A DNA stretch of 64,000 nucleotides, from positions 9,072-73,071 of the forward strand of contig JBBRCQ010000010.1 in the NCBI GenBank assembly GCA_038204725.1, read 5' to 3'. The notes under the pieces were generated by a model, which made no database searches, was not told the DNA's origin, and saw only the letters and a list, made by a program, of their open reading frames with translations. The translations under genes and the position numbers were made by a program. This document shows, in pieces, positions 2,237-45,909 of this stretch (position 1 is its first letter; every line of letters begins with the position of its first letter). The DNA comes from Bacteroidales bacterium (GTDB taxonomy: Bacteria > Bacteroidota > Bacteroidia > Bacteroidales > JACABE01).

Positions 2237-2239
2237 AAA

Positions 2240-6683: not shown

Positions 6684-7589
6684 ATGTTTAGAAAAAATAT
6701 TTACAAGAAGTTTTATTTATCTATTTTAATTACTTTTTTCTTTTTTGGACAGTTGTATGCTCAAAAATGGGATGTTACTGCTGATAAAAAAGCTAAAAAA
6801 AGTTTCATTAAATTTGACAAAAATACAGCAAAAGAAGGCGAAACAATTTATACCAAAAACTGCAAGACTTGTCATGGTAATCCAGGAAAAGGTGACTTTC
6901 TTATAACTTTAAAACCACATCCTGTTGATCTGGCAAGTTCAACTACACAGAAATATACAGATGGAGATTTGTTCTATATCATTTCCACTGGTAGACAAAT
7001 AATGCCATCCTTTAAAAATGTTTTATCTGAAGATGAAAGATGGAAAGTAATTTCTTTTATAAGGAGCTTTAACAAAACCTATATCCAGGTTCTTTCGTTG
7101 ACTGACCCAAACAAAAGCAAACTGGTAAATATTACAATGGATTTTGATTCTATTTCCAACAAGGTGAATGTGATGATCAAAGCCAATGAAAAAACAGGAG
7201 TTGTAAATTTAAAGGATGCTGAAGTGCTGTTATTTGTAAACAGATATTTTGGGAAAATGCAAATTGATAAAACCATTCGTACCAATAATGAAGGAAAAGT
7301 TACCTTTAGTTTTCCCAAAGACTTACCAGGAGATAAAACTGGAATGGTGGATTTAACAATAAAAGTAAATGACGATAATTACGGGGAAATAGAGTCTCAA
7401 AATAAATTAAAAATAGGAATACCTACAGATAAACCCGGTTTAAATGAAAAACGGGCAATATGGAATGTTGTTAACAAAGCACCTTTTTGGATCATCATAA
7501 CATTTACATCCATTCTTTTAGTGGTAATGTTTTTTTTAGGTTACATCTTATATAGTTTATTTAAAATAAGAAAAATTGGAGCTGTTTAA
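6684..7589 (+). CDS. Monohaem class-I cytochrome c with an extra beta-rich domain and a C-terminal TM anchor
   Basis: 301 aa. Signal peptide, one CKTCH, and a Met ligand context QIMPSF. C-terminal helix FWIIITFTSILLVVMFFLGYILYSLF. Confidence 0.8.
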   Translation: MFRKNIYKKFYLSILITFFFFGQLYAQKWDVTADKKAKKSFIKFDKNTAKEGETIYTKNCKTCHGNPGKGDFLITLKPHPVDLASSTTQKYTDGDLFYIISTGRQIMPSFKNVLSEDERWKVISFIRSFNKTYIQVLSLTDPNKSKLVNITMDFDSISNKVNVMIKANEKTGVVNLKDAEVLLFVNRYFGKMQIDKTIRTNNEGKVTFSFPKDLPGDKTGMVDLTIKVNDDNYGEIESQNKLKIGIPTDKPGLNEKRAIWNVVNKAPFWIIITFTSILLVVMFFLGYILYSLFKIRKIGAV

Positions 7590-7633: not shown

Positions 7634-8017
7634 ATGAAAAATCTCGCTATTTTTGGTAGAATATTGTTTGCTATACCCTTTGGTATTATTGGGTTAAACC
7701 ATTTTTTGATGACCAATTTTTTTCTGGGTCAAATGTCTTCATTTATTCCCGGAGGAGCTTATACTGTTTTATTGACAGGCGCTTTATTAATATTGGCAAG
7801 TATTAGTATTCTCATTAATAAATTTATAAAAATTACATGTTTTAGCTTAGCAGGATTATTGCTTATTTTTATCATAACAATTCATATTCCTGGTTTATTT
7901 ACTGTAAACGCTGAATTTGCATTAATTGAACTGCTCAAAGATACCGGATTAATGGGAGGAGCCATTATGCTTGCAGTTTATTCAGATTTTTCAAAATATA
8001 AATCCATTAAAGAATAA
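7634..8017 (+). CDS. DoxX-family membrane protein
   Basis: 127 aa, 4 TM. The LNHF... pattern is typical of DoxX-like proteins. Confidence 0.6.
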   Translation: MKNLAIFGRILFAIPFGIIGLNHFLMTNFFLGQMSSFIPGGAYTVLLTGALLILASISILINKFIKITCFSLAGLLLIFIITIHIPGLFTVNAEFALIELLKDTGLMGGAIMLAVYSDFSKYKSIKE

Positions 8018-8021
8018 TGCT

Positions 8022-8792
8022 ATGAAAAAGAAACTCATTTTAATTTTTATTGCTTTTATCATTTTTATTCCATTTTCTAAAGCTCAGGTAGATCAATCTG
8101 ATGATGTTGGCATAATTGAACATCTCGGCAAATACATCCCTTTAGATTTGCAATTTGTCAACGATAAATCTGAAGCAGTAACCTTAAGACAACTCATCAA
8201 CAAACCTACCATTTTATCATTTGTCTATTTTGACTGCCCCGGTTTGTGTAGTCCATTATTAGAAGGAGTTGGAGATGTTATACAAAAAACAGACCTGGTA
8301 TTAGGTAAGGATTATCAAGTGATAACGATTAGTTTTAATTTCAGAGATACTCCTGAAAAAGCCAAAGCTAAAAAGGAAAAGTTTATTGACCGCTATTCTA
8401 AAGGGAAAGGCGATGGCTGGATATTTCTTACTACTGACAGTCTGACGATTTTTAAAATTACTGATGCTACTGGTTTTAAAACAAAAGCAGTAGGTCTTGA
8501 TTTCGTACATCCTTCTGCAATTATTGCCATAAGTCCACAAGGTATGATTACAAGATATCTTTATGGAATCACTTTCCTCCCCATTGACTTTAAAATGTCA
8601 ATTTATGAAGCCAACAAAGAGCAACCCAGACCAACTATTCAAAAAATATTATTGATGTGTTATAGTTACGATATCGATAATAAACGATTTGCTTTGGATA
8701 TTACAAAAGTTTCAGGGATAATAATCGTTTTTTTCCTCCTTGTATTTATAGTAGGATTTCTAATTAAAAGCAAAAAGAAAAAACAAATATAA
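8022..8792 (+). CDS. SCO1/SenC copper chaperone for cytochrome oxidase
   Basis: Thioredoxin-like CxxxC copper site FDCPGLCSP, a downstream His (DFVHPS), and a C-terminal TM. Start moved from 7971 to Met 8022 (MKKKLILIF signal-like), which removes the overlap with DoxX. Confidence 0.85.
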   Translation: MKKKLILIFIAFIIFIPFSKAQVDQSDDVGIIEHLGKYIPLDLQFVNDKSEAVTLRQLINKPTILSFVYFDCPGLCSPLLEGVGDVIQKTDLVLGKDYQVITISFNFRDTPEKAKAKKEKFIDRYSKGKGDGWIFLTTDSLTIFKITDATGFKTKAVGLDFVHPSAIIAISPQGMITRYLYGITFLPIDFKMSIYEANKEQPRPTIQKILLMCYSYDIDNKRFALDITKVSGIIIVFFLLVFIVGFLIKSKKKKQI

Positions 8793-8799
8793 AGCAACC

Positions 8800-10410
8800 A
8801 TGAGTAACGAAACTACTAAAACAGAATATGTAAGTTATCTGGATCATCAGGGAAAGTATAAAGGATTGTTTTCCTGGATTTTTTCTACAGATCATAAAAG
8901 AATAGCGTTGCTTTATATGTATGCAATTTCAACGTTTTTCTTTGTGGGTGCTACTTTGGGTTTATTAATGCGATTAGAACTGATTGCACCCGGCGAAACG
9001 ATTATGAAACCACAAACCTACAATGGAATTTTTACGGTACATGGAATCATTATGATTTTCATGGTTGTTATTCCCGGATTATCAGCAATATTTGGAAATT
9101 TCTTTTTACCTATTCATATTGGTGCTAAGGATGTGGCTTTCCCAAAATTAAATTTATTTTCATGGTGGGTCTTTATAACAGGTAGTGTATTGGCAATTGC
9201 TTCTCAGTTTTTAAAAAGCGGACCTCCCGATACAGGATGGACCTTTTACGCCCCTTATAGCACGACTACAGGCACCAGTGTGATCATGGCTACTACAGCT
9301 GCATTTGTGCTTGGCTTCTCTTCTATCCTCACCGGACTGAACTTTATTGTTACAATTCATCAAATGCGTGCTCCGGGTATGAAATTCTTTAGTATGCCTT
9401 TATTTCCATGGTCAATTTATGCAACAGCTTGGATTCAATTACTTGCAACACCTATTATCGGGATAACGCTTTTAATGCTCATCGCAGAAAGACTTTTCGG
9501 AATTGGTTTTTTTAATCCTGAATTAGGTGGTGATCCGATACTGTTTCAACATTTGTTCTGGATTTATTCACATCCAGCAGTTTATATTATGATTCTTCCG
9601 GCAATGGGAGTTATCACAGAAATAATCCCTACTTTTTGTCAGAAAAGAATTTATGGTTACAAAGCCATTGCTTATTCAAGTATAGCCATTGCTGCCGTTG
9701 GCTTCCTGGTTTGGGGGCATCACATGTTTACTTCAGGTATGAGCGAAACAGCCAGATGGTTCTTTTCATTACTTACTTTTATTGTAGCTGTTCCAAGTGC
9801 GATTAAAGTTTTCAACTGGATTTCTACCATGTACAAAGGGTCTATTGACTTAAAGCCACCTTTTTTGTATTCCCTTTCGTTCATCTTCCTTTTTATAATA
9901 GGCGGCTTAACCGGTTTATTACAAGGTGCTGTTGCAATAAACATTCAGATACACGATACTTCATTTATTGTTGCACATTTTCATTACATTATTTTTGGAG
10001 GAATGGGTTTTGCATTTTTTGCAGCCCTTCATTATTGGTTACCTAAAATGTATGGCAGAATGTATAATTTCAAAATTGCCAATATTGCCTGGGGAATCAT
10101 TTTTATCGGTTTTAACTTTTTATATTTCCCTCAATTTATTCTTGGAATGCAAGGTATGCCAAGAAGATATTTCGATTATTTACCTATGTTTCAAACAGGT
10201 CAAATAATATCTACACTTGGTGGTATAACTTTAATATCAGGATTAATACTCATGGTATATAATTTAATATCCGGAATGAAAACAGGAGCAATTGCAACAG
10301 CAAACCCTTGGAATGGATCTACCTTGGAATGGCAGATCCCTTCACCCCCACCGCTGGAGAATTTTGATGTACCACCTGTTGTAAAAGAAAATCCTTACGA
10401 TTATAATTAG
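8800..10410 (+). CDS. ctaD: Cytochrome c oxidase subunit I, A2-type
   Basis: 536 aa with 12 or more TM and GHHMFTSGM. The helix VI motif FWIYSHPAVY carries the Tyr-Ser substitution for the HPEVY glutamate that defines A2-type haem-copper oxidases. Confidence 0.95.
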   Translation: MSNETTKTEYVSYLDHQGKYKGLFSWIFSTDHKRIALLYMYAISTFFFVGATLGLLMRLELIAPGETIMKPQTYNGIFTVHGIIMIFMVVIPGLSAIFGNFFLPIHIGAKDVAFPKLNLFSWWVFITGSVLAIASQFLKSGPPDTGWTFYAPYSTTTGTSVIMATTAAFVLGFSSILTGLNFIVTIHQMRAPGMKFFSMPLFPWSIYATAWIQLLATPIIGITLLMLIAERLFGIGFFNPELGGDPILFQHLFWIYSHPAVYIMILPAMGVITEIIPTFCQKRIYGYKAIAYSSIAIAAVGFLVWGHHMFTSGMSETARWFFSLLTFIVAVPSAIKVFNWISTMYKGSIDLKPPFLYSLSFIFLFIIGGLTGLLQGAVAINIQIHDTSFIVAHFHYIIFGGMGFAFFAALHYWLPKMYGRMYNFKIANIAWGIIFIGFNFLYFPQFILGMQGMPRRYFDYLPMFQTGQIISTLGGITLISGLILMVYNLISGMKTGAIATANPWNGSTLEWQIPSPPPLENFDVPPVVKENPYDYN

Positions 10411-10423
10411 AAAAACAAATGCT

Positions 10424-11041
10424 ATGAATGATCAACTGAAACACACTGAAGTACACAGAGATGACGAAGCATCCAAATTAGGCATGTGGCTCTTCATTTT
10501 TACAGAACTCCTTTTATTCGGAGGTTTATTCCTGGTTTATTCAATTTATAGAGCACAATATCATGAAAATTTTCATGAAGGGAGTTTAGAATTAAGTGTC
10601 ACAATAGGTGCAATCAACACAATTGTGCTTTTATTCAGTAGTATGACCATTGCAATGGCTTTAACTGCTATGCAAAAAAACAATAAAAAATTGGCTCTGA
10701 TAATGATTGCGGTTACATTGCTGATGGCTTTCATCTTTTTAGTGAATAAATATTTTGAATGGGGTGCAAAGTTTCATCATGGATTATACCCCGGATCTGA
10801 TTTAATGTCTCACTTAGAAAGAGGTCATCTTTTATATTTCAGCCTGTATTTTTTTATGACCGGATTGCACGCATTACATATTATTGTTGGGATGACACTT
10901 CTATTAATTGTATTTTTTAAAGTGAAAAATGGAAACATTCATTATCAAAAATATGTATTTCTGGAAAATGGAGCGCTTTACTGGCATCTTGTAGATTTAA
11001 TCTGGATTTTCTTATTCCCGTTAATGTATTTAATTTCATGA
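10424..11041 (+). CDS. ctaE: Cytochrome c oxidase subunit III (short form)
   Basis: 205 aa, polytopic, with a WHLVDLIWIFLFP motif. Confidence 0.85.
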   Translation: MNDQLKHTEVHRDDEASKLGMWLFIFTELLLFGGLFLVYSIYRAQYHENFHEGSLELSVTIGAINTIVLLFSSMTIAMALTAMQKNNKKLALIMIAVTLLMAFIFLVNKYFEWGAKFHHGLYPGSDLMSHLERGHLLYFSLYFFMTGLHALHIIVGMTLLLIVFFKVKNGNIHYQKYVFLENGALYWHLVDLIWIFLFPLMYLIS

Positions 11042-11056
11042 TAAAATTATATTAAA

Positions 11057-11341
11057 ATGGCTAATCACAGTTCACATACAACAGCATATAAAGTATTGGG
11101 AAGGGTTTTAATTACTTTAATGACGCTTACTTTCCTAACCATTTATATTACCTCTATTCATCTGGCTGCATTAACTGTTATGGTAGCATTATTAATTGCA
11201 GGCATTAAAGGATTTTTGGTTATGTATTATTTTATGCATTTAAAATATGAAACTTTATTGTTGCGTATTCTTGTGAGCATGACCATTGTTCTATTCATCG
11301 TTATTGTTTTAGTAACATTTATTGATTATTCATACAGATAA
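11057..11341 (+). CDS. Cytochrome c oxidase subunit IV-like small membrane protein
   Basis: 94 aa, 3 TM. Position follows subunit III, as in ctaF/CoxIV genes. Confidence 0.65.
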   Translation: MANHSSHTTAYKVLGRVLITLMTLTFLTIYITSIHLAALTVMVALLIAGIKGFLVMYYFMHLKYETLLLRILVSMTIVLFIVIVLVTFIDYSYR

Positions 11342-11351
11342 ATAAAAAAAT

Positions 11352-12272
11352 ATGTTTTCTAACGCTTCGAATTTTGTTCAGAATGTAGATTATGCATTTC
11401 TGATAATTTTAGGAATCTCATTTTTCTTTTTAATTTTATTAACTGCAATAATGGTTGTTTTTGTAGTAAAATATAATAAGAAAAAACACAGCAAAGCTGT
11501 TCAGATAAAAGACAATCCACTTTTAGAAATTACATGGACTATAGTACCATTGATTCTTGCACTTTATATGTTTTATATCGGCTGGGAAGGATTTCTTCCG
11601 ATGCGAAAAGCACCTAAAGATGCGATGGAAGTGAATGTAATCGGAAGAATGTGGAAATGGACGTTTGAGTACCCAGGCAATAAACTATCTGATACACTAA
11701 TATTACCAATACATAAATCGGTCAAACTCAACCTTATTTCAAAAGATGTTATCCATGGTTTCTTTATTCCTTCTTTTAGAATTAAAGAAGACGTTGTACC
11801 CGGGAAAAAAAATTATACATGGTTTATTCCCGGCGAATTGGGTGATTACAATCTGTTTTGTTCTTCCTATTGTGGGGTTAGCCATTCCTATATGTCAGCT
11901 ATTGTCAGGATTGTTCCCGATGTAAATTACTCAAAGTGGATAGCTGCTTTACCCGCTAAGCCATCAGAAAATCATGAAGGATATAAAATTATGGAAAATA
12001 ACGGATGTTTTTCATGTCATACAGTGGATGGAACTAAAAATGTAGGTCCTAGTTTCAGGGGATTATTCGGATCAACTATCGAAGTAATTACAAATGGGAA
12101 CCCAAGAAAAATCACAGTAGATGCAGAATACATTAAGTCTTCAGTTTATGAACCGGATAAAGATGTTGTGGTTGATTATCAAAAAGGACTCATGAAATCC
12201 TATCAAGGACTTATTAAAGAGAAAGAAATAAACGGAATAACAGAATATTTAAAAACATTAAACAAAAAATAA
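11352..12272 (+). CDS. ctaC: Cytochrome c oxidase subunit II with fused C-terminal cytochrome c (caa3 type)
   Basis: Two N-terminal TM helices. CuA site VIHGF...CSSYCGVSHSYM. C-terminal CFSCH haem c domain. Confidence 0.9.
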   Translation: MFSNASNFVQNVDYAFLIILGISFFFLILLTAIMVVFVVKYNKKKHSKAVQIKDNPLLEITWTIVPLILALYMFYIGWEGFLPMRKAPKDAMEVNVIGRMWKWTFEYPGNKLSDTLILPIHKSVKLNLISKDVIHGFFIPSFRIKEDVVPGKKNYTWFIPGELGDYNLFCSSYCGVSHSYMSAIVRIVPDVNYSKWIAALPAKPSENHEGYKIMENNGCFSCHTVDGTKNVGPSFRGLFGSTIEVITNGNPRKITVDAEYIKSSVYEPDKDVVVDYQKGLMKSYQGLIKEKEINGITEYLKTLNKK

Positions 12273-12306
12273 ACTGAAAAAGCTGCTGATAAATATTATA
12301 CCTGCC

Positions 12307-13143
12307 TTGATAAAATACAAGGTTTCATTGGCTGTAACATTTACAGCTATTACAGGTTATATCCTTTACAATGGAAATATTGATTTTCAGTTACTTTATT
12401 TAGCATTGGGCGTATTTATACTTGCAGGTGGAGTGAGTGCATTCAATGAATTTCAGGAACGTGAATATGATGCAAAAATGAACAGGACAATGCATCGCCC
12501 AATTCCTTCGGGGGAAATCTCGCCTCAACTTGCACTTTTTATTTCTTTACTTTTTATAGTAATTGGAATTGTAATATTGTTTGTTTTTTTCGGAACAATC
12601 ACAACATTATTAGGATTATTCAATGTAATATGGTATAATTTAATCTATACAAATCTCAAAAAAATCACACCGTTTGCAGTGGTTCCCGGTTCATTAACCG
12701 GAGCTGTACCCGTTTTAATAGGCTGGACTGCTGCAGGAGGGTATATCTTTGATTCAGCTATCATTTATATTGCATTGTTTGTTTTTGTGTGGCAAATACC
12801 GCATTTCTGGTTATTAATGCTTAAATACGGCGAGGAATATGAAGCAGCCGGTTTCCCCACTATCAATCAATCATTTAACCCCGAAAATCTGAAAATAATC
12901 ATATTTTCCTGGGTTATAGCAACTACTATTATTTCGATGATGCTGCCTTTGTTTATTGTGAATATATCATTGCCGTTTTTTGTAGCCGTTTTTGTTTTAA
13001 ATATACTGTTTGTTGGAATTTTTACATTGCTGACATTTGGGAAAGTCACTGAACTGAATCTTAAACGTTCTTTTATCGGTATCAATATCTACATGTTCAT
13101 TTTCATGGTGATGCTCACCATTTATCATCTTTTTGAATTATAA
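12307..13143 (+). CDS. ctaB: Protohaem IX farnesyltransferase (haem O synthase)
   Basis: 278 aa UbiA-type polytopic protein (NEFQEREYDAKMNRT..RP). There is no in-frame ATG/GTG upstream, so a TTG start at 12307 is assumed. Confidence 0.85.
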   Translation: MIKYKVSLAVTFTAITGYILYNGNIDFQLLYLALGVFILAGGVSAFNEFQEREYDAKMNRTMHRPIPSGEISPQLALFISLLFIVIGIVILFVFFGTITTLLGLFNVIWYNLIYTNLKKITPFAVVPGSLTGAVPVLIGWTAAGGYIFDSAIIYIALFVFVWQIPHFWLLMLKYGEEYEAAGFPTINQSFNPENLKIIIFSWVIATTIISMMLPLFIVNISLPFFVAVFVLNILFVGIFTLLTFGKVTELNLKRSFIGINIYMFIFMVMLTIYHLFEL

Positions 13144-13155
13144 TGCTAACGAAAC

Positions 13156-13977
13156 TCAATTTATTTTTGTTGTCCGTTTAGCGATATAATAACTTAATTC
13201 ATACAACATATAGAGCGGAAGTGAAACAAGTATCTGAGTGAACATATCGGTGGAAGGAGTAATAAAACCTGATAGAATAAAAATAATGATAATGGCATAA
13301 TTTCTTTTAGCTCTCATTAATTGTGGCGTAATCAAACCGATTTTTGTCAGAAAAAAAATGAAAACAGGTAATTCGAAAACAAGACCCATAGAAAGTGAAA
13401 GCGTAGTGATTGTTGAAATATAAGAGCTAATTGTGATATTATTTTTTATCAATGAACTCAACTCGTAGGATGATAAAAAATTTATTGTGAGTGGAGCTAT
13501 TACATAATACCCAAACAGAACACCAATGATAAAAAGCAATGAAATATAAGATACCATCCCACTTGAATAATGCTTTTCTTTTACTGTTAATGCAGGTTTT
13601 ATAAATAACCAGAACTGATAAATTATAAACGGAAAAGCCACTACTATACCGGCAATAAACGAAATGACCATGTGATAGCGAAACTGACCACCCAATTCGA
13701 TATTAATGAGCTGTAAATTAATCTGAGATACACAAAGGTCAGGTAAATTTAAAAAAACGGCTAATTTACATAAAACGCGATAAGTGATAAACGAAGGTTC
13801 GCTGGGAGCAAGAATCACTGAATTGAACAGGAAATCTTTAAAATAAAATGCAATAATTGCCAATATAAAAATGGATAACACTGCACGAATCAGATATTTT
13901 CTAAGAATGTCAACATGATCCCAAAAGCTCATGTCGTCCTTCTTCTTATGAAGTGAACGAAATAAAAAACCAAACAT
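13156..13977 (-). CDS. tatC: Twin-arginine translocase subunit TatC
   Basis: 273 aa, 6 TM. N-terminus MSFWDHVDILRKYLIR matches the TatC signature. Confidence 0.9.
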   Translation of the reverse strand: MFGFLFRSLHKKKDDMSFWDHVDILRKYLIRAVLSIFILAIIAFYFKDFLFNSVILAPSEPSFITYRVLCKLAVFLNLPDLCVSQINLQLINIELGGQFRYHMVISFIAGIVVAFPFIIYQFWLFIKPALTVKEKHYSSGMVSYISLLFIIGVLFGYYVIAPLTINFLSSYELSSLIKNNITISSYISTITTLSLSMGLVFELPVFIFFLTKIGLITPQLMRAKRNYAIIIIFILSGFITPSTDMFTQILVSLPLYMLYELSYYIAKRTTKIN

Positions 13978-13981
13978 ACAT

Positions 13982-14185
13982 CTATTTTTTTATTTCTTGT
14001 TTGGGATCTTCTTTGTCAGTTTTTACTTCATCATTGTAAACGCCATCTTTGGCTTTTGTAAATTCATTGATTCCTTTGCCAATGCCACGCATCAATTCAG
14101 GTATTTTTTTCCCGCCAAATAAAATCAAAATTGCGATGATAATTAGAATAATTTCCTGACCACCTAATATTCCCAATAGTATCAT
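13982..14185 (-). CDS. tatA: Twin-arginine translocase subunit TatA/E
   Basis: 67 aa with a single TM plus an amphipathic helix: ILILFGGKKIPELMRGIGKGINEFTKA. Confidence 0.9.
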   Translation of the reverse strand: MILLGILGGQEIILIIIAILILFGGKKIPELMRGIGKGINEFTKAKDGVYNDEVKTDKEDPKQEIKK

Positions 14186-14496
14186 GATATATTTTATTTA
14201 ATATGAATGCTGAAACAATCTTCTTTTACTACTAAAAAACCTAATATGCTCTCATTTTATATTTACAAAAATACACTATTTCTGCTATTAAAATCAAAAA
14301 TTTATCATAAAAAGAAACACAGAAAAATTTATAGGTTCACAAACAATTATAATTTTCGATTATAAAAACCAAATCATTATAATTCATCCCATTGCAACCA
14401 AACAATAACTTTTATTTGAATAAATCATTCACAATAAACAACTATGTATTCAACAAAACAGAACCGTTAGCTATTTAAATGAGAAATCCTGTATTT

Positions 14497-17280
14497 TTAG
14501 TATTTTCCAGCAAGTAATGAATAGATTATCAGTATCACAAGTATAATCCCAGTAAACAAGGCTATAAATCCAAATATTTTTACAAATTTAAGCCATGATT
14601 TAGTGATTTCTGTTTTAACAATATATTTCTCCATATCACCTGCTTCTTCCATTTTTTCAAATTCTTTGGGACGGTCAATTTTATATTCTTCCAATTCAAC
14701 ATGACCGGTAAAAATAACAGTATCCATTGGAAATGCTTCAGGACGCAAATGAGTATTGAAGAAATGAATAGTGAATATAAAAACTACAGCTAATAGTGCT
14801 TCATCACTATGTATAATTTGAGCTACATTAATAATCCAGCCGGGAAATATTTTGGTAAATATTTCAGGAAACCATAAAATTAAACCGGAGAATCCAATCA
14901 CAGCAACACCCCAAAAAACAGCCATATAATCAAACTTTTCCCAATAAGTCCATCTACCATATTTAGGACGTTCGCCCAACCATAAAAACCATTTAATAGT
15001 CGCAATGAAATCTATAACATCTTGTTTGTTAAACATTAATGTATTCGATCCAAAAATGAAAGATCCGATTTTTTTATTTTGGGCTTTTTTGAGTTTTAAT
15101 AAAGATACGATATGGAAAATAAAGTATCCAAAAGTAATTAATGCTGCAAAACGATGGATATTGCCTGCAATTTCAACACCACCCATTAATCTTGCAAAGT
15201 TATTTGCCCAGCTCATGTGGGCAAACTTAAGCATCATACCCGTAAAGGCTAACAATAAGAAGCTGAGTATTACAAAAATGTGAGTGATCCGCTGGCTTTT
15301 TGTAAATCGTCGGATGTATATTGCTTCTCCTTGTGGTAATGGATGACGTTTCTTTTTTCTGGCTTCAACAATGGAACGGGGAATCCATAAAAGTGTATGT
15401 ATTCCGAAAAATCCAAAAACACCAAAAAGCAATGAAGTCATACCCCAAAATGTATAATAAAGTATATTATTATCATTGTGGGTAGCATGAGATAAAAATC
15501 CTGTAAATTTCAGATTTGCATTGGCATGACATTTTTTACAGGTTTTTACAATGTATTTTTCTCCTACACTGGATTCGGGATTATTAATGTTCAGAATATT
15601 ATGTGCACCATGACAATCAGAACATCTAGCCGTTTTTAACTGACCCAGTGTATATGCTTTCCCATGATAGGTTTCCATATAGGAAGATGAAAGTTTTTCG
15701 TGACACGAGCCACATTGAATTGTAATCTGAGTTAAAAATTGATCTTTGTCGATTTCTGTAATCGTATGTGCTGTATGACAATTAGCACAAGTTGGATATT
15801 TTTTATCTTTTGTATTTTTTAAAATTGAATGATCACTGCTGATATATTCATTATAAATACTTTTATGACATTTTCCACAGGTTTTTGGGATTTGAAGCGG
15901 GTTTACCGTTGAATTAGGATCAGATTCCTTTAAAACATTATGTGAGGTGTGACAATCGGTACAAATCGCACTAGCTAGCAATCCTTTATTCATTAAACCT
16001 TTCCCATGAACACTCTTGGAATAATCACTAAAAGCATCTATTTCTTTTAAATTTGTATTGATAACAGCTTTTCCGTTTTTATTATGACACTTTCCACAAA
16101 GTTTCGGACTGTTTGCTCTGTTTGTTTCTGAATTCTCATCATATCTGCTTAATATAATATGTGTTCCATGACAATCGGTACAATAGGGTGCATTCGATTT
16201 TTTACCATAAAATGCCTGTCCATGTCCACTATTTATGTAAATATTCGAAACTGCTTCATGACATATAGAACAATCTACTTTACCTACTGTTTTACAGGGT
16301 CGAACATGGCTATTATCTTTAGTTACGTCAGCATGGCATTTATCACAGGCAATATTTTTATGAGGTGTATTCATAAAATCTTCATGATTGATTTTTAAGG
16401 ATACTTTTTTATTATTTACAATTTTAAAAGTATTATCAGACTCATGACATTTTGTACATACCTGATTGGATATGGAAATTTCTTCTTTTTGACGTTTTAT
16501 TTTATGTGATGAATGGCAATCGTTGCAACTGGGTATACTTCCCGCTTTCTTTTCCCATAATTCACTCTTTATAACCTTTTTATGAACCATTTCAATGTTA
16601 GTATGACATTTCATGCAGGTAGATGCAATTTTTTTACTAGAAGTAGTAGCCTGAGGATTGATATGGGGAAGTATCAAATGGTTCCCATGACAATCATTAC
16701 AAGTTGCTGAAACTATCAGTCCACTTTCTAACAATCCTTTTCCATGTATACTCTCACTGTAATTGGTGAGAATATTTTGCGTAGTTATGTTATATAATCG
16801 AGCAACCGGAGCGCCTTCTTTATGACATTTACCACACAAAACAGGAATGTTCATTTTATAAGTAACTGATTTTACATTGGTATGTGAAAGGACATCATGT
16901 TTTCCATGACATTCCTTACAATCAGGAGCATAAGGAGCATTAAATTTTAATGCCTGCCCATGAATACTAATACCAAATTGATATTCAGCATTTTTATGAC
17001 AACTGCCACAACTTACTTCCTTGAGATTTTCGGGATGAGGAAAATCTGTTACATTCGCATCTTTATGGCAAGATATACATTTTACATTTTTATGTATAGA
17101 ATTCCCAATTATACTTTTATTGACAAACAATGAAACGGTTTTGCCATTGGATACTTTTGTCAGGGTTTTATCACTATGGCAACCATAACAGTCATCATTC
17201 GTCTGTGAATATAAATTACCTGTAAAAAAAAGAAAACTCGTAATTACTAGTAATAGGATTGCCTTGATAACATTTAACAT
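14497..17280 (-). CDS. Multihaem cytochrome c (19 CxxCH) fused to a dihaem cytochrome b-like membrane domain (CbcL-like architecture)
   Basis: 927 aa. Signal peptide, then 19 CxxCH motifs (7 are CxxCHxxH) in residues about 30-590. About six TM helices follow, with the FdnI/HydC-type His pattern (RFTKSQRITH, GNIHRF...FIFH, IIHSD...TIHFFNTH). Confidence 0.85.
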   Translation of the reverse strand: MLNVIKAILLLVITSFLFFTGNLYSQTNDDCYGCHSDKTLTKVSNGKTVSLFVNKSIIGNSIHKNVKCISCHKDANVTDFPHPENLKEVSCGSCHKNAEYQFGISIHGQALKFNAPYAPDCKECHGKHDVLSHTNVKSVTYKMNIPVLCGKCHKEGAPVARLYNITTQNILTNYSESIHGKGLLESGLIVSATCNDCHGNHLILPHINPQATTSSKKIASTCMKCHTNIEMVHKKVIKSELWEKKAGSIPSCNDCHSSHKIKRQKEEISISNQVCTKCHESDNTFKIVNNKKVSLKINHEDFMNTPHKNIACDKCHADVTKDNSHVRPCKTVGKVDCSICHEAVSNIYINSGHGQAFYGKKSNAPYCTDCHGTHIILSRYDENSETNRANSPKLCGKCHNKNGKAVINTNLKEIDAFSDYSKSVHGKGLMNKGLLASAICTDCHTSHNVLKESDPNSTVNPLQIPKTCGKCHKSIYNEYISSDHSILKNTKDKKYPTCANCHTAHTITEIDKDQFLTQITIQCGSCHEKLSSSYMETYHGKAYTLGQLKTARCSDCHGAHNILNINNPESSVGEKYIVKTCKKCHANANLKFTGFLSHATHNDNNILYYTFWGMTSLLFGVFGFFGIHTLLWIPRSIVEARKKKRHPLPQGEAIYIRRFTKSQRITHIFVILSFLLLAFTGMMLKFAHMSWANNFARLMGGVEIAGNIHRFAALITFGYFIFHIVSLLKLKKAQNKKIGSFIFGSNTLMFNKQDVIDFIATIKWFLWLGERPKYGRWTYWEKFDYMAVFWGVAVIGFSGLILWFPEIFTKIFPGWIINVAQIIHSDEALLAVVFIFTIHFFNTHLRPEAFPMDTVIFTGHVELEEYKIDRPKEFEKMEEAGDMEKYIVKTEITKSWLKFVKIFGFIALFTGIILVILIIYSLLAGKY

Positions 17281-17363
17281 TTTTATTGGGTTTAATTCTT
17301 AAACAAAAGGATTGATGATAAAAACTTGAGCTTTTTTATATGTTTGTTCAAAAGATGTATAAA

Positions 17364-17406
17364 TTAAATCACGAATTGGAACTAAATGCCCCAATTCGTG
17401 ATTTAA
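17364..17406 (-). promoter_or_regulatory. Perfect 16-bp inverted repeat (stem-loop) between the monohaem cytochrome gene and the 19-haem gene
   Basis: TTAAATCACGAATTGG, an 11-nt loop, then CCAATTCGTGATTTAA. On the transcribed (minus) strand it is followed by UUUAU. Possible attenuator or mRNA-stability element. Confidence 0.5.
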
Positions 17407-17425
17407 TATTAAAGTGAATCAGAAC

Positions 17426-17818
17426 TTAAAGTGTCCTCAAATAATTCACTAAATTCCATTTTTCATTATCATCTTTAATTTTAGTCTTGTATGCAGGCAT
17501 TTTACCATGTCCTGTATTTATTTTATAGAAAATAGCACCATCTGTTTGTGTTTTGAATGTTTTCAATGTAAAATCAGAAGGTTCTGCCATTTTACCAACT
17601 CCTTTACCAGTGGCGCCATGACACAATTTACAGGTCTTTGTAAACAAAACTTTACCTGCAGCAATAGATGTAGCATCAGAATTTACAGGATTTTTAACAG
17701 AGGCAGCAGCAGCAGGTACATCCCAGCCTTTGTCAACGCTAACAAAAGAAAACAGACATAAAACAATGGTAGCCATTGAAAAAGTGATAACTACTTTTTT
17801 AAATTTTACTTTTTTCAT
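17426..17818 (-). CDS. Periplasmic monohaem class-I cytochrome c
   Basis: One CKLCHG and a Met ligand context HGKMPAY. Start moved to Met 17818 (MKKVKFKK plus hydrophobic signal). Same subfamily pattern (W-D-V-P...NP...G...CxxCHG..GKG) as the N-terminus of the 6684 cytochrome. Confidence 0.85.
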   Translation of the reverse strand: MKKVKFKKVVITFSMATIVLCLFSFVSVDKGWDVPAAAASVKNPVNSDATSIAAGKVLFTKTCKLCHGATGKGVGKMAEPSDFTLKTFKTQTDGAIFYKINTGHGKMPAYKTKIKDDNEKWNLVNYLRTL

Positions 17819-17871
17819 GTTATTTCTCCTTAGTTTTAAATGATTAATAATATATAATGTACTAAACAAAA

Positions 17872-18804
17872 TTAGTAAAATACTCTTGTAATATTAAATC
17901 CAAGCATCAATCCACTATGCAAAAAATCATTCTGGTTATAAACCATATTTCGTTGATATGTAATATCATAAGCAGTAGTTACAAATATTTGGAACGAATG
18001 AGCAGAAGTTGCATTTTCAATCCCAATAGCTATATTTGGTTTTGCTTCTTTATACGTATCATTGTCATTCAATTTTTTATACAATTTTGTAAAATTATGA
18101 TCGTATTCACCAAAAAGAGCAATAGTAGGCGTTAAATTAACTTTTGCAATAACAGAAAGTCCAAAGTTGTCATTTCTTCTAAGTCTTACATTGGTCGTAT
18201 CATTTTTGGCATAGGATTCTGCAATATTATAATGTGTATAGGTTGGAGCGATCTGCAAATTTAAAAAATCAGTAATCTTGCGTGAAAACATAATTTCGTG
18301 AAAATATGACAACCTGTGAACATATTTGTAGTTTGCATAGTCAAAATTAGACGATTCTCTCGCATCTAAAACTAAAGAACCATAATAAGTAATTGAAACC
18401 GGTATTTTTCCATTTGTAGTTTGTTCTACAATACCATATTTAATACTCAAGTCCTGTTGTTTGTTAAATTTAGTAGCTCCAATACCAATCTGCAATTTAT
18501 CTGTAATACTATAGTTGAGCCCCAATCTAATATTTGAAGGAGAATAAATACCCCAAAATTCGTCAAAACCATCACTTATTTTACCAAATCTGTGATTAAT
18601 TACAAACTCTAACGTTTTGGCCGGATACATTAATACCGTTTGATTTTCAAGAAATATACCGCTGTTGTATGTGCCGGTAACTGGTTTGTTAGGTTCAGGT
18701 GTTTCCTGAGCAAACAAAAAACTTGTTGCAAAAATTGCAATAAACACAAAGGATGTAAAATATTTAATCAGTATGTGATGTGTTGTTTTTTTTATTGTTA
18801 TCAT
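17872..18804 (-). CDS. Small outer-membrane beta-barrel protein (HRFG-motif family; DUF5777-like from memory)
   Basis: 310 aa. Signal peptide ...SFLFAQE, alternating hydrophobic strands throughout, and a C-terminal ...GFNITRVFY aromatic terminus typical of BAM substrates. Confidence 0.65.
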   Translation of the reverse strand: MITIKKTTHHILIKYFTSFVFIAIFATSFLFAQETPEPNKPVTGTYNSGIFLENQTVLMYPAKTLEFVINHRFGKISDGFDEFWGIYSPSNIRLGLNYSITDKLQIGIGATKFNKQQDLSIKYGIVEQTTNGKIPVSITYYGSLVLDARESSNFDYANYKYVHRLSYFHEIMFSRKITDFLNLQIAPTYTHYNIAESYAKNDTTNVRLRRNDNFGLSVIAKVNLTPTIALFGEYDHNFTKLYKKLNDNDTYKEAKPNIAIGIENATSAHSFQIFVTTAYDITYQRNMVYNQNDFLHSGLMLGFNITRVFY

Positions 18805-18874
18805 AATTTTGTCTTTTTTGTGATTTATATAATAAACTTGAATGTTAACAGTTTCTTGATATGATTATTAAATA

Positions 18875-19246
18875 TTAATTATCCAATGCTCCCGTATCAA
18901 TCCATCCTTTTAAATTGGTTAATTCAGTGGAAGTTAATGATTTACCCTGGTGACTTGCTCCGTTAAATTTCAGAAACAAAATACTTGTAGCAGAACTGTT
19001 AGGAACAACTGCATCTACTAATAAATTAGCTCTAACTGCAGACGGTGTACCGGTTAATGTTAAACCACCAGCAGTACCATGACAGCCTGTGCAATTATAT
19101 TTGGTAAAAATAGGATAAACATCCGTTGAAAATTTTGCATTCGGATTTGGAACGATCACTGTAACTTTAGGTTCAATAGTATCTTTAGTGCAACTTCCAA
19201 GTATCACAAAGATAAAAGCAATTAAAAACAGTACTCTGATTTTCAT
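18875..19246 (-). CDS. Monohaem c-type lipoprotein (PSCyt1-like domain pattern)
   Basis: Start re-set to Met 19246 (MKIRVLFLIAFIFVILGSC, lipobox LGSC). Single CTGCHG in VYPIFTKYNCTGCHGTAGGLTL...LTSTELTNLKGWIDTGA, which resembles the planctomycete-type cytochrome C domain pattern as I remember it. Confidence 0.7.
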   Translation of the reverse strand: MKIRVLFLIAFIFVILGSCTKDTIEPKVTVIVPNPNAKFSTDVYPIFTKYNCTGCHGTAGGLTLTGTPSAVRANLLVDAVVPNSSATSILFLKFNGASHQGKSLTSTELTNLKGWIDTGALDN

Positions 19247-19433
19247 TTTTTTTTTTTTTAGTTTAACATAATTCAATAAAGTATTTCTAACTTTTATATG
19301 CAAAAATATTAAAAAAAACGACACTTGGTATAACATCAACTAAATATAGCCAAATATAAAAATCTATAATTACTTTAACTACCTATCAATCTGAAACATA
19401 TTACAAATCATTAAAACAACAATCATAGATAAA

Positions 19434-19447
19434 TTGACATATATCAA
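19434..19447. promoter_or_regulatory. FNR/CRP-type palindromic box TTGACATATATCAA
   Basis: TTGAC-N4-ATCAA, one mismatch from the TTGAT-N4-ATCAA consensus. Lies 188 bp upstream of the lipoprotein-cytochrome operon start in the divergent intergenic region. Confidence 0.55.
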
Positions 19448-19620
19448 TGATTTTATTAACATAAAATAATTTATTCTTTATTTTAAAAATCAAGCTTAAA
19501 AAGTTGATAGTTACACATAATTGTTTTATGCTGTAATTTTAAATAATATAGTAATCTTATACCTGATATTTTTTTTTTGCACTTTTTTTTTTTTTTTAGT
19601 GTATAAAATATAAATTAGCT

Positions 19621-19660
19621 TATCTTTGTTTCAAATTTCATTTTTTGGTGACAAATGTCA
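19621..19660 (+). promoter_or_regulatory. -7 box TATCTTTG followed by TGACAAATGTCA palindrome (possible promoter and operator of the Crp/Fnr gene)
   Basis: TAnnTTTG match at 19621-19628. A perfect 5+5 palindrome lies at 19649-19660. T10 and T15 tracts sit immediately upstream (19569-19597). Confidence 0.4.
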
Positions 19661-19822
19661 TTTATTTCTGATATTAATATCATAAAAATTAATGCTTAAT
19701 ATTAACTTGTAGATTTATCAACTAAATTAAAAATGACATTTCTGTAGTCAATTATAATATCCTATAATAATATAGGAATCAATAATTAAAATATCAGTTA
19801 AACTTCATAATTATAATAATGT

Positions 19823-20518
19823 ATGGAAGATAAAAAAAATCCTAAACACTGTGGAGCCTGTCTGACAAAGCTTCCTATCTTTAAATCGCTGACTGAAGAA
19901 CAATTTGAATTGGTTAATCAGGTACGTTGCAGAGTTAAATTCCGCCCTGGTGAAATTATATTTAAACAAGGTACAGCCATGACACATATTATCGTTGTCA
20001 ACGAAGGTCTTGTAAAAATTTATCTTGAAGGCATCAACAACCGTAATTTGATACTTCGTTTTGCCAGACCTGTTTCAATAATAGGTGGCCCCGGATTTTT
20101 TACAGATTTTAAAAATCATATAACAACTGTAGCTGTCGAAGAATCCTCAGCTTGTTTTATAGATGTAAATACGATCACTGATTTATTAAAAGTGAATACA
20201 GATTTTGCAATAGATTTATTAAAATGGGTGAATTCTCAAACTTTATCTAATTATTTAAAGTTCATTGAATTAACCCAGAAAGGTATGCATGGAAGAATTG
20301 CCGGGGCTCTGCTTTATTTGCATTCTGAAGTTTTTATCGATAGAAATGGTGAAATCCGGATTAAACGTCAGGATTTAGCTGACCTCACTGCAATGTCAAA
20401 AGAAAGTGCTATCCGTATATTAAAAGAACTCAAAGATGAAAATATCATTTCAGTCGATGGAAATGCAATTATTTTAAATGATATTGCCAGTTTAACACAA
20501 ATTAGTATTAAAGGATAA
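19823..20518 (+). CDS. Crp/Fnr-family transcription regulator with FNR-like cysteines
   Basis: 231 aa with a cNMP-binding-like beta-roll and a C-terminal HTH (RQDLADLTAMSKESAIRILKEL). N-terminal HCGAC and an internal EESSACFIDV. Confidence 0.85.
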   Translation: MEDKKNPKHCGACLTKLPIFKSLTEEQFELVNQVRCRVKFRPGEIIFKQGTAMTHIIVVNEGLVKIYLEGINNRNLILRFARPVSIIGGPGFFTDFKNHITTVAVEESSACFIDVNTITDLLKVNTDFAIDLLKWVNSQTLSNYLKFIELTQKGMHGRIAGALLYLHSEVFIDRNGEIRIKRQDLADLTAMSKESAIRILKELKDENIISVDGNAIILNDIASLTQISIKG

Positions 20519-20632
20519 AATATTTAAGTTTATACTTAATAGATTTTTGTTCAGTTTGTATTGATTTAATTCAGTATTGTTCTTAATTCCATATTCAACA
20601 AACACCAATTATACAAAGCCCGATACTAAACA

Positions 20633-20646
20633 TTGACATTTATCAA
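20633..20646. promoter_or_regulatory. FNR/CRP-type palindromic box TTGACATTTATCAA
   Basis: Same half-sites as the box at 19434. Its centre is about 32 bp upstream of a TACTTTTA -7-like box (20671-20678) and 160 bp upstream of the hexahaem gene. Confidence 0.55.
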
Positions 20647-20801
20647 CATTATTTTGATTATTATCCAAAGTACTTTTAGGAAATGTCAACTGTTTTTTTA
20701 CTGTTTTTTAATTTTTACTCATTATGTTTGCAATGTTTTATACCGTGAAAAATATAACAACAAATTACAAGAATTAAGTATTAATCAAAATTAAAAAACA
20801 A

Positions 20802-22136
20802 ATGAAAAAATTTAACTTTAAATTTTTATTTACAGGAGTCATTATGCTTTCAACAGCATCAATGTTTTTTCTGTCAGGTTGCGCAAAAGATGGCAACGAC
20901 GGTACAGATGGTAAAGATGGTAAAGACGGAGTGGATGCAATTGCAACTTGCAAAATCTGTCATAATGCATCAGTAGTTGATAGTATTGCAACTCAATTTC
21001 AACTTTCAAAACATGAATATGGTTTAGCAGCTGAAGAAGAAGCTGGTAATACTTCTTGTGGTCCATGCCACGAACAAGAAGGATTCAGATATGTTATTAA
21101 AGCCAATACTTCAACACAGTTTCTGATTGTACCACCTGCAACTACCTATTCAAATCCTTATGCAACAACAGCTTCTACTTCATTCGGTTCTTTGGGTTGT
21201 AAAACTTGTCATAGTAGTTTACATACTACATATGGTTATTCTGATATTTCAGCTTTAACCACAACTGCAGCCGTTCCATTAACAATGTGGGGTGGTGCTA
21301 AAACTGTTAACCTTACACAGGATGGCGGAAAAAGTAATTTATGTGTTAGATGTCATCAACCACGTCCATTCACTAATTCTAATACCGACAAAAATGTATT
21401 AAATTATGCTAAATTAGTTAGCAATCCAACTGATACATTTTATAGCTTTACACAAGCAAATACATTAAATGTACTGAAACCTGCTTACAGAACTCATACT
21501 CATTACGGTACTGCAGGTGCAGTTTTCGCAGGTACAGCTGGTGTTGAATTCACAGGTGCTTTAACTTATACCAGTTCAAAACATACTACAGATGTAAGTT
21601 GTCAGGATTGTCACATGGCTCCTATGCAAGGTGCTGCAGGTGGACATACTTTCAAATCAAAAGGCAATTTTAATGGTTGTACTCCATGTCACCCATCAGT
21701 AAATGCAACTTCTCAGGATGCTGCTTACTGGTCAACTCCAAGAGCTGATATCAAAACTTTACTAAACCAACTGGCTGCTAAATTAACTATTGGTGGTGTA
21801 GATATATTAAATAGAAACGGAGATAGTGAATCAAATCTTTGGATAGGTTTAACTACCAATAACTATGATGGTTATTTAAATGTCTATGATCCTATTACCA
21901 ATCCATCAGGCGCAACATACAATACAAGCAGTTTCCGTTTTACAGGAACTCCTCCTTCATCTTGGACTTCAGCCCAAATTGCGTATAACAATTCTTTACC
22001 AAGAATCACCCTAACCAATGCACAAATGGGAGCTATCATCAATTTCCAGATGTGTTTGAGAGATTACAGTTTAGGAATTCACAATTTCAAATATACTAAA
22101 GCATTATTGACAAACTCAATTGCTATGTTACCATAA
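20802..22136 (+). CDS. Hexahaem c-type cytochrome lipoprotein with a collagen-like GXY stretch
   Basis: 444 aa, lipobox FLSGC. Immediately after the Cys comes AKD-GND-GTD-GKD-GKD-GVD. Six CxxCH motifs: CKICH, CGPCH, CKTCH, CVRCH, CQDCH and CTPCH. Confidence 0.8.
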   Translation: MKKFNFKFLFTGVIMLSTASMFFLSGCAKDGNDGTDGKDGKDGVDAIATCKICHNASVVDSIATQFQLSKHEYGLAAEEEAGNTSCGPCHEQEGFRYVIKANTSTQFLIVPPATTYSNPYATTASTSFGSLGCKTCHSSLHTTYGYSDISALTTTAAVPLTMWGGAKTVNLTQDGGKSNLCVRCHQPRPFTNSNTDKNVLNYAKLVSNPTDTFYSFTQANTLNVLKPAYRTHTHYGTAGAVFAGTAGVEFTGALTYTSSKHTTDVSCQDCHMAPMQGAAGGHTFKSKGNFNGCTPCHPSVNATSQDAAYWSTPRADIKTLLNQLAAKLTIGGVDILNRNGDSESNLWIGLTTNNYDGYLNVYDPITNPSGATYNTSSFRFTGTPPSSWTSAQIAYNNSLPRITLTNAQMGAIINFQMCLRDYSLGIHNFKYTKALLTNSIAMLP

Positions 22137-34743: not shown

Positions 34744-34828
34744 GGAGAGTTGGCAGAGTGGTCGATTGCGGCAGTCTTGAAAACTGTTGAACTGCAAGGT
34801 TCCTGGGGTTCGAATCCCTAACTCTCCG
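34744..34828 (+). tRNA. tRNA-Ser (anticodon UGA), type II with long variable arm
   Basis: The hand-folded cloverleaf is consistent. Acceptor GGAGAGT/ACTCTCC plus discriminator G; D arm GCA/TGC; anticodon stem GCAGT/ACTGT with loop CT-TGA-AA; long variable arm; T arm TGGGG-TTCGAAT-CCCTA. No encoded CCA. Confidence 0.9.
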
Positions 34829-34852
34829 CATCAACGAGATAAGATAAAAAGT

Positions 34853-44894: not shown

Positions 44895-44897
44895 TTA

Positions 44898-45901: not shown

Positions 45902-45909
45902 TCAATTAA

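Follow-up and report, generated by a model that had tools for sequence, protein, structure and literature searches.

A haem lipoprotein, a DUF5777 barrel and exchangeable quinone modules in Bacteroidota: a candidate electron route across the outer membrane

The window analysed here is a 64,000-nucleotide stretch of a Bacteroidales genome (GenBank assembly GCA_038204725.1, contig JBBRCQ010000010.1, positions 9,072 to 73,071 of the forward strand), in which an original prediction, made from the letters and a list of open reading frames (ORFs), had placed a candidate multihaem electron-transfer system spanning the cell envelope and flanking its own Crp/Fnr regulator. Using an ORF list and a haem-motif count, we found the six genes as described, with coordinates, strands and numbers of haem motifs reproduced. 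On the minus strand the order is lipoprotein cytochrome, outer-membrane barrel, class-I cytochrome c and a gene for a protein of 927 amino acids (aa), with spacers of 70, 53 and 145 base pairs (bp); the divergent pair consists of the Crp/Fnr regulator followed by a 444-aa lipoprotein with six CxxCH motifs. Copies of TTGAC-N4-ATCAA sit in both promoter regions, as had been noticed, but the palindrome is imperfect. The genes and boxes of the cluster are as follows.

14497..17280, minus strand: 19-haem c / cytochrome b inner-membrane protein, 927 aa (motif count and Pfam)
17426..17818, minus strand: class-I monohaem cytochrome c, 130 aa (ORF 17426..17869 read from Met18)
17872..18804, minus strand: DUF5777 outer-membrane beta-barrel, 310 aa (Pfam PF19089)
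18875..19246, minus strand: monohaem c-type cytochrome lipoprotein, 123 aa (ORF 18875..19339 read from Met32)
19434-19447, no strand assigned: FNR-type box TTGACATATATCAA, about 195-197 bp upstream of the lipoprotein gene start
19823..20518, plus strand: Crp/Fnr-family regulator, 231 aa (Pfam cNMP_binding and HTH_Crp_2)
20633-20646, no strand assigned: FNR-type box TTGACATTTATCAA, ~160 bp upstream of the hexahaem gene
20802..22136, plus strand: hexahaem lipoprotein, 444 aa, with six CxxCH motifs and the lipobox LSGC

A scan with a profile of the barrel, against one genome per species, returned 212 relatives, so that at least 212 species-level genomes hold a close relative of the barrel; almost all are Bacteroidota (Bacteroidales, Lentimicrobium, Chitinophagaceae, Cyclobacteriaceae, Saprospiraceae and Ohtaekwangia). 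The best 80 of the 212 loci were profiled by our own ORF calling and BLASTP, and the counts that follow refer to the 56 of them with full flanks. A haem lipoprotein stands directly upstream of the barrel in 53, and near the barrel there is a class-I cytochrome c in 47, a protein with at least four haems in 44, a Crp/Fnr gene in 41, a close hexahaem homologue (at least 45% identity) in 13 and a 927-aa orthologue in nine. Even between Bacteroidota families at 35-45% protein identity, the lipoprotein, barrel and cytochrome c genes keep their order and their orientation. At the other 12 loci no multihaem partner was found within ~7 kb of the barrel; ten of these carry a Fer4/NrfD module, while L026 and L060 showed none. 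Since barrel loci without multihaem proteins occur, mostly with Fer4/NrfD, the conserved core is the lipoprotein cytochrome, the barrel and the cytochrome c together with an exchangeable quinone module, and not the multihaem set. The co-conservation anticipated in the original prediction was thus borne out, the block recurring in dozens of Bacteroidota genomes and in one cultured strain. Its proviso that the barrel should not routinely occur apart from multihaem partners held for 44 of the 56 loci and failed for 12.

The cultured strain is Aquipluma nitroreducens (locus L084; AP018694.1, 975,554-996,885), in which all genes of the set run in one direction as a single block. It begins with Crp and continues with the hexahaem protein, lipoprotein cytochrome, barrel, 7-haem protein and cytochrome b, followed by a 960-aa homologue of the 927-aa protein, a NapC/NirT-type cytochrome (500 aa), a c554-like tetrahaem protein and a fused ResB/CcsA protein; blocks of this type were also found at L003 and L086. 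Elsewhere the partner upstream of the barrel varies, being a 5-haem lipoprotein at L085 and, beside a distant barrel, a 212-aa monohaem lipoprotein at L088, and the 927-aa family occurs without the barrel at L001/L002 and L087. No molybdoenzyme or other conventional (non-cytochrome) terminal reductase was seen in the sampled cluster flanks. Record names place the closest relatives in lakes (Loclat, ELA, Deming, Umea), in thaw ponds and in groundwater, sites that we take to be anoxic and rich in iron or humics. In the literature, a Lentimicrobium paper describes a giant cytochrome cluster of another, uncharacterised kind, and a lake-metagenome preprint mentions, without detail, uncharacterised porin-cytochrome operons of Bacteroidetes.

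The start of the small lipoprotein at Met32 fits the lengths of its homologues (121-126 aa). Its lipobox, LGSC, is followed by a Pro-rich tether of ~20 residues and by the haem motif CTGCH, the only CxxCH of the protein. In 74 of the 80 loci the gene next upstream of the barrel encodes a homologue, and in the alignment every homologue keeps the haem site, as CX2CH or as CX4CH, the latter reading SCNFSGCH in many homologues (loci L018-L083). Because CX4CH variants are common, a plain count of CxxCH under-counts the haems of this system. The distal ligand of the small lipoprotein is probably His in the clade of the window (ASH) and Met in others (GSM). Searched against the PDB, the family profile gave weak matches to the haem domain of hydrazine synthase alpha (1.5e-6), to FoxE (2.6e-4) and to PccH (4rlr, 1.3e-3), and seven of 20 family members matched the Pfam family PccH (PF22297; best E=5.6e-5), the window protein itself having no match. 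The small lipoprotein would accordingly appear to be distantly related to PccH, FoxE and PSCyt1-like cytochromes. Its haem domain weakly matches those of PccH from Geobacter and FoxE from Rhodobacter ferrooxidans SW2; unlike these, it belongs to a protein that is lipid-anchored and always paired with a barrel. A literature search found no relevant papers on PccH or FoxE in Bacteroidota. In surface-exposed lipoproteins of Bacteroidota the optimum export signal is C-X-K-(D/E)2-X (PMC5080379). From the lipidated Cys onward the two lipoproteins of the window read C-T-K-D-T-I-E and C-A-K-D-G-N-D, so that surface exposure of both is weakly indicated by partial export signals.

The barrel protein has a signal peptide, ends in ...ITRVFY and matches PF19089 over residues 50-309 (230.1 bits, cut-off 23.1; E=3e-68). 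Its AlphaFold2 model, made with 23 homologues, has 12 strands (predicted local distance difference test score, pLDDT, 84; predicted template modelling score, pTM, 0.78), and its best Foldseek matches are the 12-14-stranded NanC, FapF, COG4313 channel, OmpG and Tsx. The homologue alignment shows Gln33, H71-R72-F73-G74 and H269 to be invariant; by the Q-rule of Bacteroidota, Gln33 is presumably the first mature residue. The DUF5777 family comprises about 2000 sequence clusters and is named in no paper of the literature library that we searched, and the cluster would give it a first functional context.

MtrB-type porins have ~20-26 strands. Identity of the barrel with MtrB/PioB was rejected on its 12 strands and on the lack of a match to any Pfam family besides DUF5777 at E<=0.1. 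The analogy with MtrAB/Pcc drawn in the original prediction fails on the same point, for 20-26 strands are needed to sheathe a cytochrome; a 12-stranded barrel cannot hold a cytochrome domain, and the crossing of the membrane must therefore differ from that of MtrAB. What the cluster shares with MtrCAB, PioAB and the Pcc systems of Geobacter is its logic, a barrel encoded with periplasmic and lipoprotein c-cytochromes and an inner-membrane quinol oxidase; unlike theirs, the window barrel falls far short of the size needed to enclose a decahaem cytochrome and has no MtrB/PioB Pfam match. The comparison with Cyc2 had to be narrowed too. Cyc2 and Cyc1 likewise combine a single-haem cytochrome, an outer-membrane barrel and a periplasmic monohaem cytochrome c into a minimal redox unit across the outer membrane. 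Cyc2 is a fusion, modelled with about 16 strands, whereas here a lipoprotein cytochrome and a 12-stranded DUF5777 barrel are encoded by separate genes 70 bp apart; the distinction from Cyc2 is one of architecture and not of sequence comparison. No Cyc2-like fusion of cytochrome and barrel was found among the 150 best representatives of 1974 DUF5777 relatives, and the longer DUF5777 proteins inspected had LysM-like or tandem-barrel extensions with no CxxCH. The third member of the trio, the 130-aa cytochrome c, has a signal peptide, the haem motif CKLCH and a distal Met in GKMPAY, and it matches Pfam PF13442 (E=3e-11) and PF00034.

Behind its signal peptide, the 927-aa protein has a periplasmic haem domain of repeated di-haem units with exactly 19 CxxCH motifs, in which residues 107-280 and 346-522 form an internal duplication (36% identity, E=4e-36). 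A PF01292 cytochrome b domain spans residues 658-837 (42.9 bits, cut-off 30.1), besides c7/c3-type domains; the b domain is of the FdnI/HydC type, the FdnI model matching at E=1e-9, under its cut-off. A crude hydropathy scan places six hydrophobic helices at ~615, 668, 712, 786, 822 and 902. Homologues 60-83% identical occur in many metagenome-assembled genomes (MAGs) of Bacteroidales. The protein reached no curated NCBIfam cut-off, and thus no characterised enzyme-partner family claims it at trusted cut-offs, which removes one of the objections foreseen in the original prediction. The decahaem family MtrA/DmsE (TIGR03508, cut-off 192.2) was rejected at 79.3 bits for the 927-aa protein and 21.7 for the hexahaem protein. 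Among all PDB chains no solved relative of the 927-aa protein was found by sequence, the one marginal match (E=0.004) being uninformative.

In Geobacter, CbcL is a dihaem cytochrome b fused to a multihaem c domain, with six helices, and CbcBA combines a 7-haem c protein with a 'thiosulfate-reductase-like' dihaem b protein (10.1101/2021.04.15.440034). The 927-aa protein, with its multihaem c part, PF01292 b domain and six predicted helices, fits the CbcL plan, a match at the level of domains and not of orthology to GSU0274; unlike CbcL it has 19 haems as against nine, its c domain is built of duplicated di-haem units, and its phylum is Bacteroidota. Sister loci hold two further plans of this sort: that of CbcBA, as a 7-haem protein of ~330 aa with a separate PhsC-like cytochrome b (E=7e-46), and that of ImcH, as the 500-aa NapC/NirT-type cytochrome. 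By analogy, the inner-membrane part would work like CbcL, CbcBA or ImcH, with a predicted role as quinol oxidase. At L084, L003 and L086 the CbcL-, CbcBA- and ImcH-like plans stand side by side; the ResB/CcsA protein found there is a system II cytochrome c maturase. Several relatives (L011, L013, L015, L016, L085) also have a shorter paralogue of the 927-aa protein, 30% identical to it and ~800 aa long, with 16 haems and a cytochrome b domain; its gene is the next one downstream of the 19-haem gene or stands in its vicinity, and the window lacks it.

Three exchangeable quinone modules thus follow the trio: the 927-aa fusion in the closest relatives, the CbcBA-like pair, and a trio of Fer4_11 protein, NrfD and a third protein, which is found mostly in lineages without multihaem proteins. 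Most of the multihaem-free barrel loci come from lineages that we take to be aerobic. More than 30 loci have the Fer4/NrfD module close to a barrel cluster, and the window has a copy of its own, read from Pfam matches.

4381-5352, plus strand: Fer4_11 iron-sulphur protein
5367-6674, plus strand: NrfD-type membrane protein
6684-7589, plus strand: 301-aa protein, with a cytochrome c domain at the N-terminus and an anchor at the C-terminus

At L039, from Ohtaekwangia, the module directly follows a DUF5777 barrel (11129-14630); the window NrfD is 53% identical to the NrfD of that trio, and the 301-aa protein is homologous to its third member. This anchored third protein, of ~290 aa in the module generally, carries a fused cytochrome c domain in the window. 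The module appears to be a small quinol:cytochrome c oxidoreductase of Bacteroidota, as yet undescribed. YceI-like proteins flank the barrel/Fer4/NrfD cluster at L039 (8802-9551 and 15632-16225); YceI is a polyisoprenoid- and quinone-binding fold, and a link of these proteins to quinone handling is possible.

The hexahaem lipoprotein belongs to a tightly conserved family, with homologues 57-76% identical. All six haem sites are conserved, the sixth often as CX4CH (GCNVSGCH), and the protein ends in a conserved, haem-free, helical C-terminal domain. Its affinities point, faintly, to one superfamily. It scored 27.5 bits against PF02335 (NrfA; cut-off 24.1), a weak match over a partial stretch, and 17.6 bits against the NCBIfam NrfA model NF008339, for which the cut-off is 595. 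With the family profile the PDB yielded an octahaem nitrite reductase (ONR; 8rv0, E=0.002) and OcwA (6i5b, E=0.03), while a search with the single sequence matched NrfA at E>0.5 only. The AlphaFold2 model is poor (pLDDT 51), and its top Foldseek matches are all NrfA/ONR, though non-significant. The catalytic haem of the NrfA family is bound by CxxCK, or in some members by CxxCH; no CxxCK motif occurs in the hexahaem protein, and its sites are CxxCH or CX4CH across the family. Six His residues outside the motifs are invariant (H71, H141, H234, H261, H282, H427), which would suffice for six bis-His haems. His261 aligns with the His 6-7 residues before the haem-4 motif of Geobacter lovleyi NrfA, a residue that we take to be catalytic there. 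The hexahaem lipoprotein may therefore be a distant member of the NrfA/ONR/OcwA superfamily, and it could be an enzyme. At low significance it resembles NrfA/ONR and OcwA, the surface terminal reductase of Thermincola potens, in haem packing and C-terminal helices, and OcwA is an example of the NrfA-superfamily fold serving extracellular electron transfer. Unlike these proteins, which have five, eight or nine haems, it has six, lacks CxxCK and is a lipoprotein with a collagen-like tether. This tether is an Asp-rich Gly-X-Y repeat directly after the lipidated Cys (residues 28-45, window 20883-20936), which reads DGNDGTDGKDGKDGVD in the window and EGPMGPAGKDGTDGTDGVDG in relatives, and its length differs among the homologues. 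It looks like a short stalk, collagen-like or flexible, and could serve for trimerisation or as a spacer from the membrane.

The regulator has cysteines at C10, C13, C36 and C111. Of these, C10, C13 and C111 are kept in 36-37 of 37 regulators from barrel clusters, and most have a fourth Cys at 34-36. FNR has Cys20, Cys23, Cys29 and Cys122 as ligands; the Cys set of the regulator resembles these iron-sulphur ligands. Like E. coli FNR, the regulator has the Crp/Fnr fold, a CxxC near the N-terminus, a central Cys equivalent to FNR Cys122 and a box of the TTGAT-N4-ATCAA type; unlike in FNR, its third N-terminal Cys is displaced to 34-36. Against the NCBIfam FNR model it scored 40.7 bits (cut-off 228). 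TTGACATATATCAA and TTGACATTTATCAA are the sole exact matches in the 64 kb to TTGAC-N4-ATCAA, and also to TTGAY-N4-RTCAA; both fall within the two relevant intergenic regions, ~1.2% of the window. They are identical at 13 of 14 bases, the half-sites TTGAC / TTGAT making an imperfect palindrome. In 11 of 74 loci the 350 bp before the lipoprotein gene contain TTGAY-N4-RTCAA, an enrichment over its background density of 0.03 per kb, and in the close relatives L006 and L007 a box stands 197-198 bp upstream of that gene. A scan for sigma-70 promoters and terminators gave counts at the level of shuffled sequence and was uninformative. The divergent intergenic region (19340-19822) is very AT-rich, with long poly-T runs at ~19570-19600, and the 18-20 kb block has the lowest GC content of the window, 27.7%.

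Between the Fer4/NrfD trio and the cluster lie an SCO1-like protein, a caa3-type oxidase and CtaB (7971..13143, plus strand, from Pfam), with the Fer4/NrfD trio directly upstream of them.

8800-10410, plus strand: COX1
10424-11041, plus strand: COX3
11352-12272, plus strand: COX2 with a cytochrome c domain
12307-13143, plus strand: CtaB, haem O synthase
13156-13977: tatC

The oxidase, which had been called adjacent, is actually 2-6 kb off, with ctaB and tatC between. It adjoins the cluster at L006 and L007 as well, where COX1 is 88% identical. Genes of haem biosynthesis lie at 147-3607 (a HemN-like radical SAM protein, ferrochelatase and protoporphyrinogen oxidase), and the 22 kb from 147 to 22136 form a haem and respiration island.

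The assignments made at the outset hold for each layer of the envelope: an inner-membrane fusion of CbcL architecture, a periplasmic class-I cytochrome c, an outer-membrane barrel, two haem lipoproteins, and an FNR-type regulator with matching boxes. Of the proposal that they form an electron conduit, the components and their synteny stand, while the multihaem set as the conserved unit and the barrel as a sheath do not. We tentatively favour the reading that the cluster is a conserved Bacteroidota respiratory module, wiring the menaquinone pool to a cytochrome-barrel complex of the outer membrane and exporting electrons at low oxygen, its acceptor being most likely extracellular or close to the outer membrane. 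Several observations lead to it: the trio is co-conserved and syntenic with multihaem proteins and Crp; the inner-membrane parts match the plans of quinol oxidases of extracellular respiration in Geobacter; the sampled flanks hold no other terminal reductase; the regulator has an FNR-like Cys set and boxes are enriched upstream of the operon; the hexahaem protein shows kinship with OcwA, a cell-surface terminal reductase; and the habitats of the relatives, as judged by site name, fit.

Under low oxygen, the FNR-type regulator would bind both TTGAC-N4-ATCAA boxes and switch on the two divergent units. The six-helix b domain of the 927-aa protein would then oxidise menaquinol and feed its own 19-haem periplasmic wire, whose repeated di-haem units might extend over much of the width of the periplasm. 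The 130-aa cytochrome c could act as shuttle or adaptor to the outer-membrane unit, formed by the monohaem lipoprotein and the 12-strand DUF5777 barrel. In that unit either the ~20-residue Pro-rich tether of the lipoprotein would thread the barrel, or its haem domain would cap the mouth of the barrel while a small redox solute (an Fe ion, chelate, quinone or flavin) passes through the pore. The NrfA/OcwA-like hexahaem lipoprotein would be a terminal oxidoreductase added in this lineage, and the Fer4/NrfD/cytochrome c module and the caa3 oxidase would draw on the same periplasmic cytochrome pool. A further claim, which we regard as doubtful, is that the DUF5777 barrel and the haem lipoprotein represent a new, minimal class of electron conduit across the outer membrane, apart from MtrB/Pcc and Cyc2 and widespread in Bacteroidota, presumably aerobic lineages included. 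Electrons would cross by an RcsF-like threaded tether, by a haem domain docked at the mouth, or by a cofactor on His71/His269, and the unit would plug into CbcL-like, CbcBA-like or Fer4/NrfD quinone modules. By analogy, the outer-membrane part would be conceptually nearest to Cyc2/Cyc1, yet split, lipid-anchored and 12-stranded.

Several findings weigh against electron export. A 12-strand barrel is without precedent as an electron conduit, and its fold resembles that of a small-solute channel. FoxE and PccH, the nearest solved relatives of the small lipoprotein, serve the uptake of electrons and not their export, and a caa3 oxidase nearby would suit inward flow. The 12 of 56 loci without a multihaem protein show that multihaem wiring is not essential to the core. 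At 57-83% identity, the 927-aa and hexahaem families are unusually conserved, more like enzymes than like fast-evolving extracellular cytochromes. The export signal of both lipoproteins is partial, with Lys at +3 and an acidic residue at +4 that is not followed by another. The number of boxes in the window is not significant by itself, 0.87 being expected and two or more occurring in 23 of 100 shuffles. Finally, the case for a conduit is computational throughout.

Electrons might instead run inward, Fe(II) or another donor being oxidised at the barrel-lipoprotein unit and its electrons passing through cytochrome c to the caa3 oxidase, while the quinone modules feed the same cytochrome c pool or permit reverse flow; such a system would be functionally Cyc2/Cyc1- or FoxE-like. 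The lipoprotein profile does match FoxE, an Fe(II) oxidase, and PccH, a protein of electron uptake from cathodes, but these matches are weak (E 1e-3 to 1e-4). A monohaem cytochrome, an outer-membrane barrel and a periplasmic monohaem cytochrome c also reproduce the logic of Cyc2/Cyc1, a caa3 oxidase stands by the cluster in the window, L006 and L007, the core trio without multihaem proteins is kept in lineages that we take to be aerobic, and relatives come from lakes that, from their site names, we take to be ferruginous. On the other hand, the FNR-type regulator and its boxes indicate induction at low oxygen, and the hosts are mostly Bacteroidales or Lentimicrobium, which are mainly anaerobic and fermentative. 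Heterotrophs moreover have little use for reverse flow, and nearly all clusters are nonetheless linked to a quinone module; we consider inward flow unlikely. Were the genes simply independent respiratory genes that came to lie together, no single system would need explaining; the setting in a general island (147-22136, with haem biosynthesis, Fer4/NrfD, caa3, ctaB and tatC) and the barrel-free occurrence of the 927-aa family at L001/L002 and L087 are what this would lead one to expect. Chance adjacency is nevertheless very improbable, given the conservation of trio order and orientation across families at 35-45% identity, the short spacers, and the common regulator and box.

The respiration of a soluble substrate, which seems to us rather improbable, would give the hexahaem protein the leading part, as the catalytic subunit of a periplasmic reductase (or oxidase) for nitrite, hydroxylamine, NO or a sulphur oxyanion, with the 927-aa protein as a quinol dehydrogenase of NrfH/NrfBCD type and wire, and the barrel as a channel for substrate or product. 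Passing the PF02335 cut-off, even weakly, speaks for this, as do the profile match to octahaem nitrite reductase (E=0.002), the alignment of His261 with the His of Geobacter lovleyi NrfA, and the name 'ammonia-forming cytochrome c nitrite reductase subunit c552' that NCBI gives to some hexahaem homologues; yet the NCBIfam NrfA model gives 17.6 bits where 595 would be required, there is no CxxCK catalytic haem, and the six invariant His could make all six haems bis-His. The top Foldseek matches are all NrfA/ONR, but they are non-significant and the model has a pLDDT of 51. High, enzyme-like conservation, the likeness of the barrel fold to solute channels, and the hybrid-cluster protein and Rrf2 regulator adjoining L085 would likewise fit a soluble substrate. 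It would leave unexplained why a haem lipoprotein constantly precedes the barrel, and a close hexahaem homologue is present at only 13 of the 56 barrel loci, the trio persisting regardless.

Anoxic sediments, the bottom waters of lakes, digesters and bioelectrochemical reactors all harbour abundant Bacteroidota, and to our knowledge no electron route through their outer membrane has been characterised. The cluster offers a concrete and widely conserved candidate for such a route, with an outer-membrane part that departs in principle from the paradigms of Shewanella and Geobacter, and the full cluster in the cultured A. nitroreducens opens it to genetics and biochemistry. If one of the rival explanations were true instead, the cluster would be a new module of Fe(II) oxidation or hold a new six-haem member of the NrfA superfamily.

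Some minor features remain. At L058, titled Chlorobiota and the sole such locus of the 80, the barrel and lipoprotein lie beside an opposite-strand gene for a 1968-aa protein with 26 haem motifs, and L063, titled Bacteroidetes bacterium, is a very similar locus. Farther along the window, at 43899-52402, is a complete Bat-type aerotolerance operon (MoxR ATPase, DUF58, an unknown gene, BatA, VWA, TPR, BatD and TPR/SH3), which would, we assume, fit an oxygen-tolerant anaerobe or a microaerophile. A tRNA-Ser (anticodon TGA) at 34744-34829 was the sole Rfam/ARAGORN match in the window.

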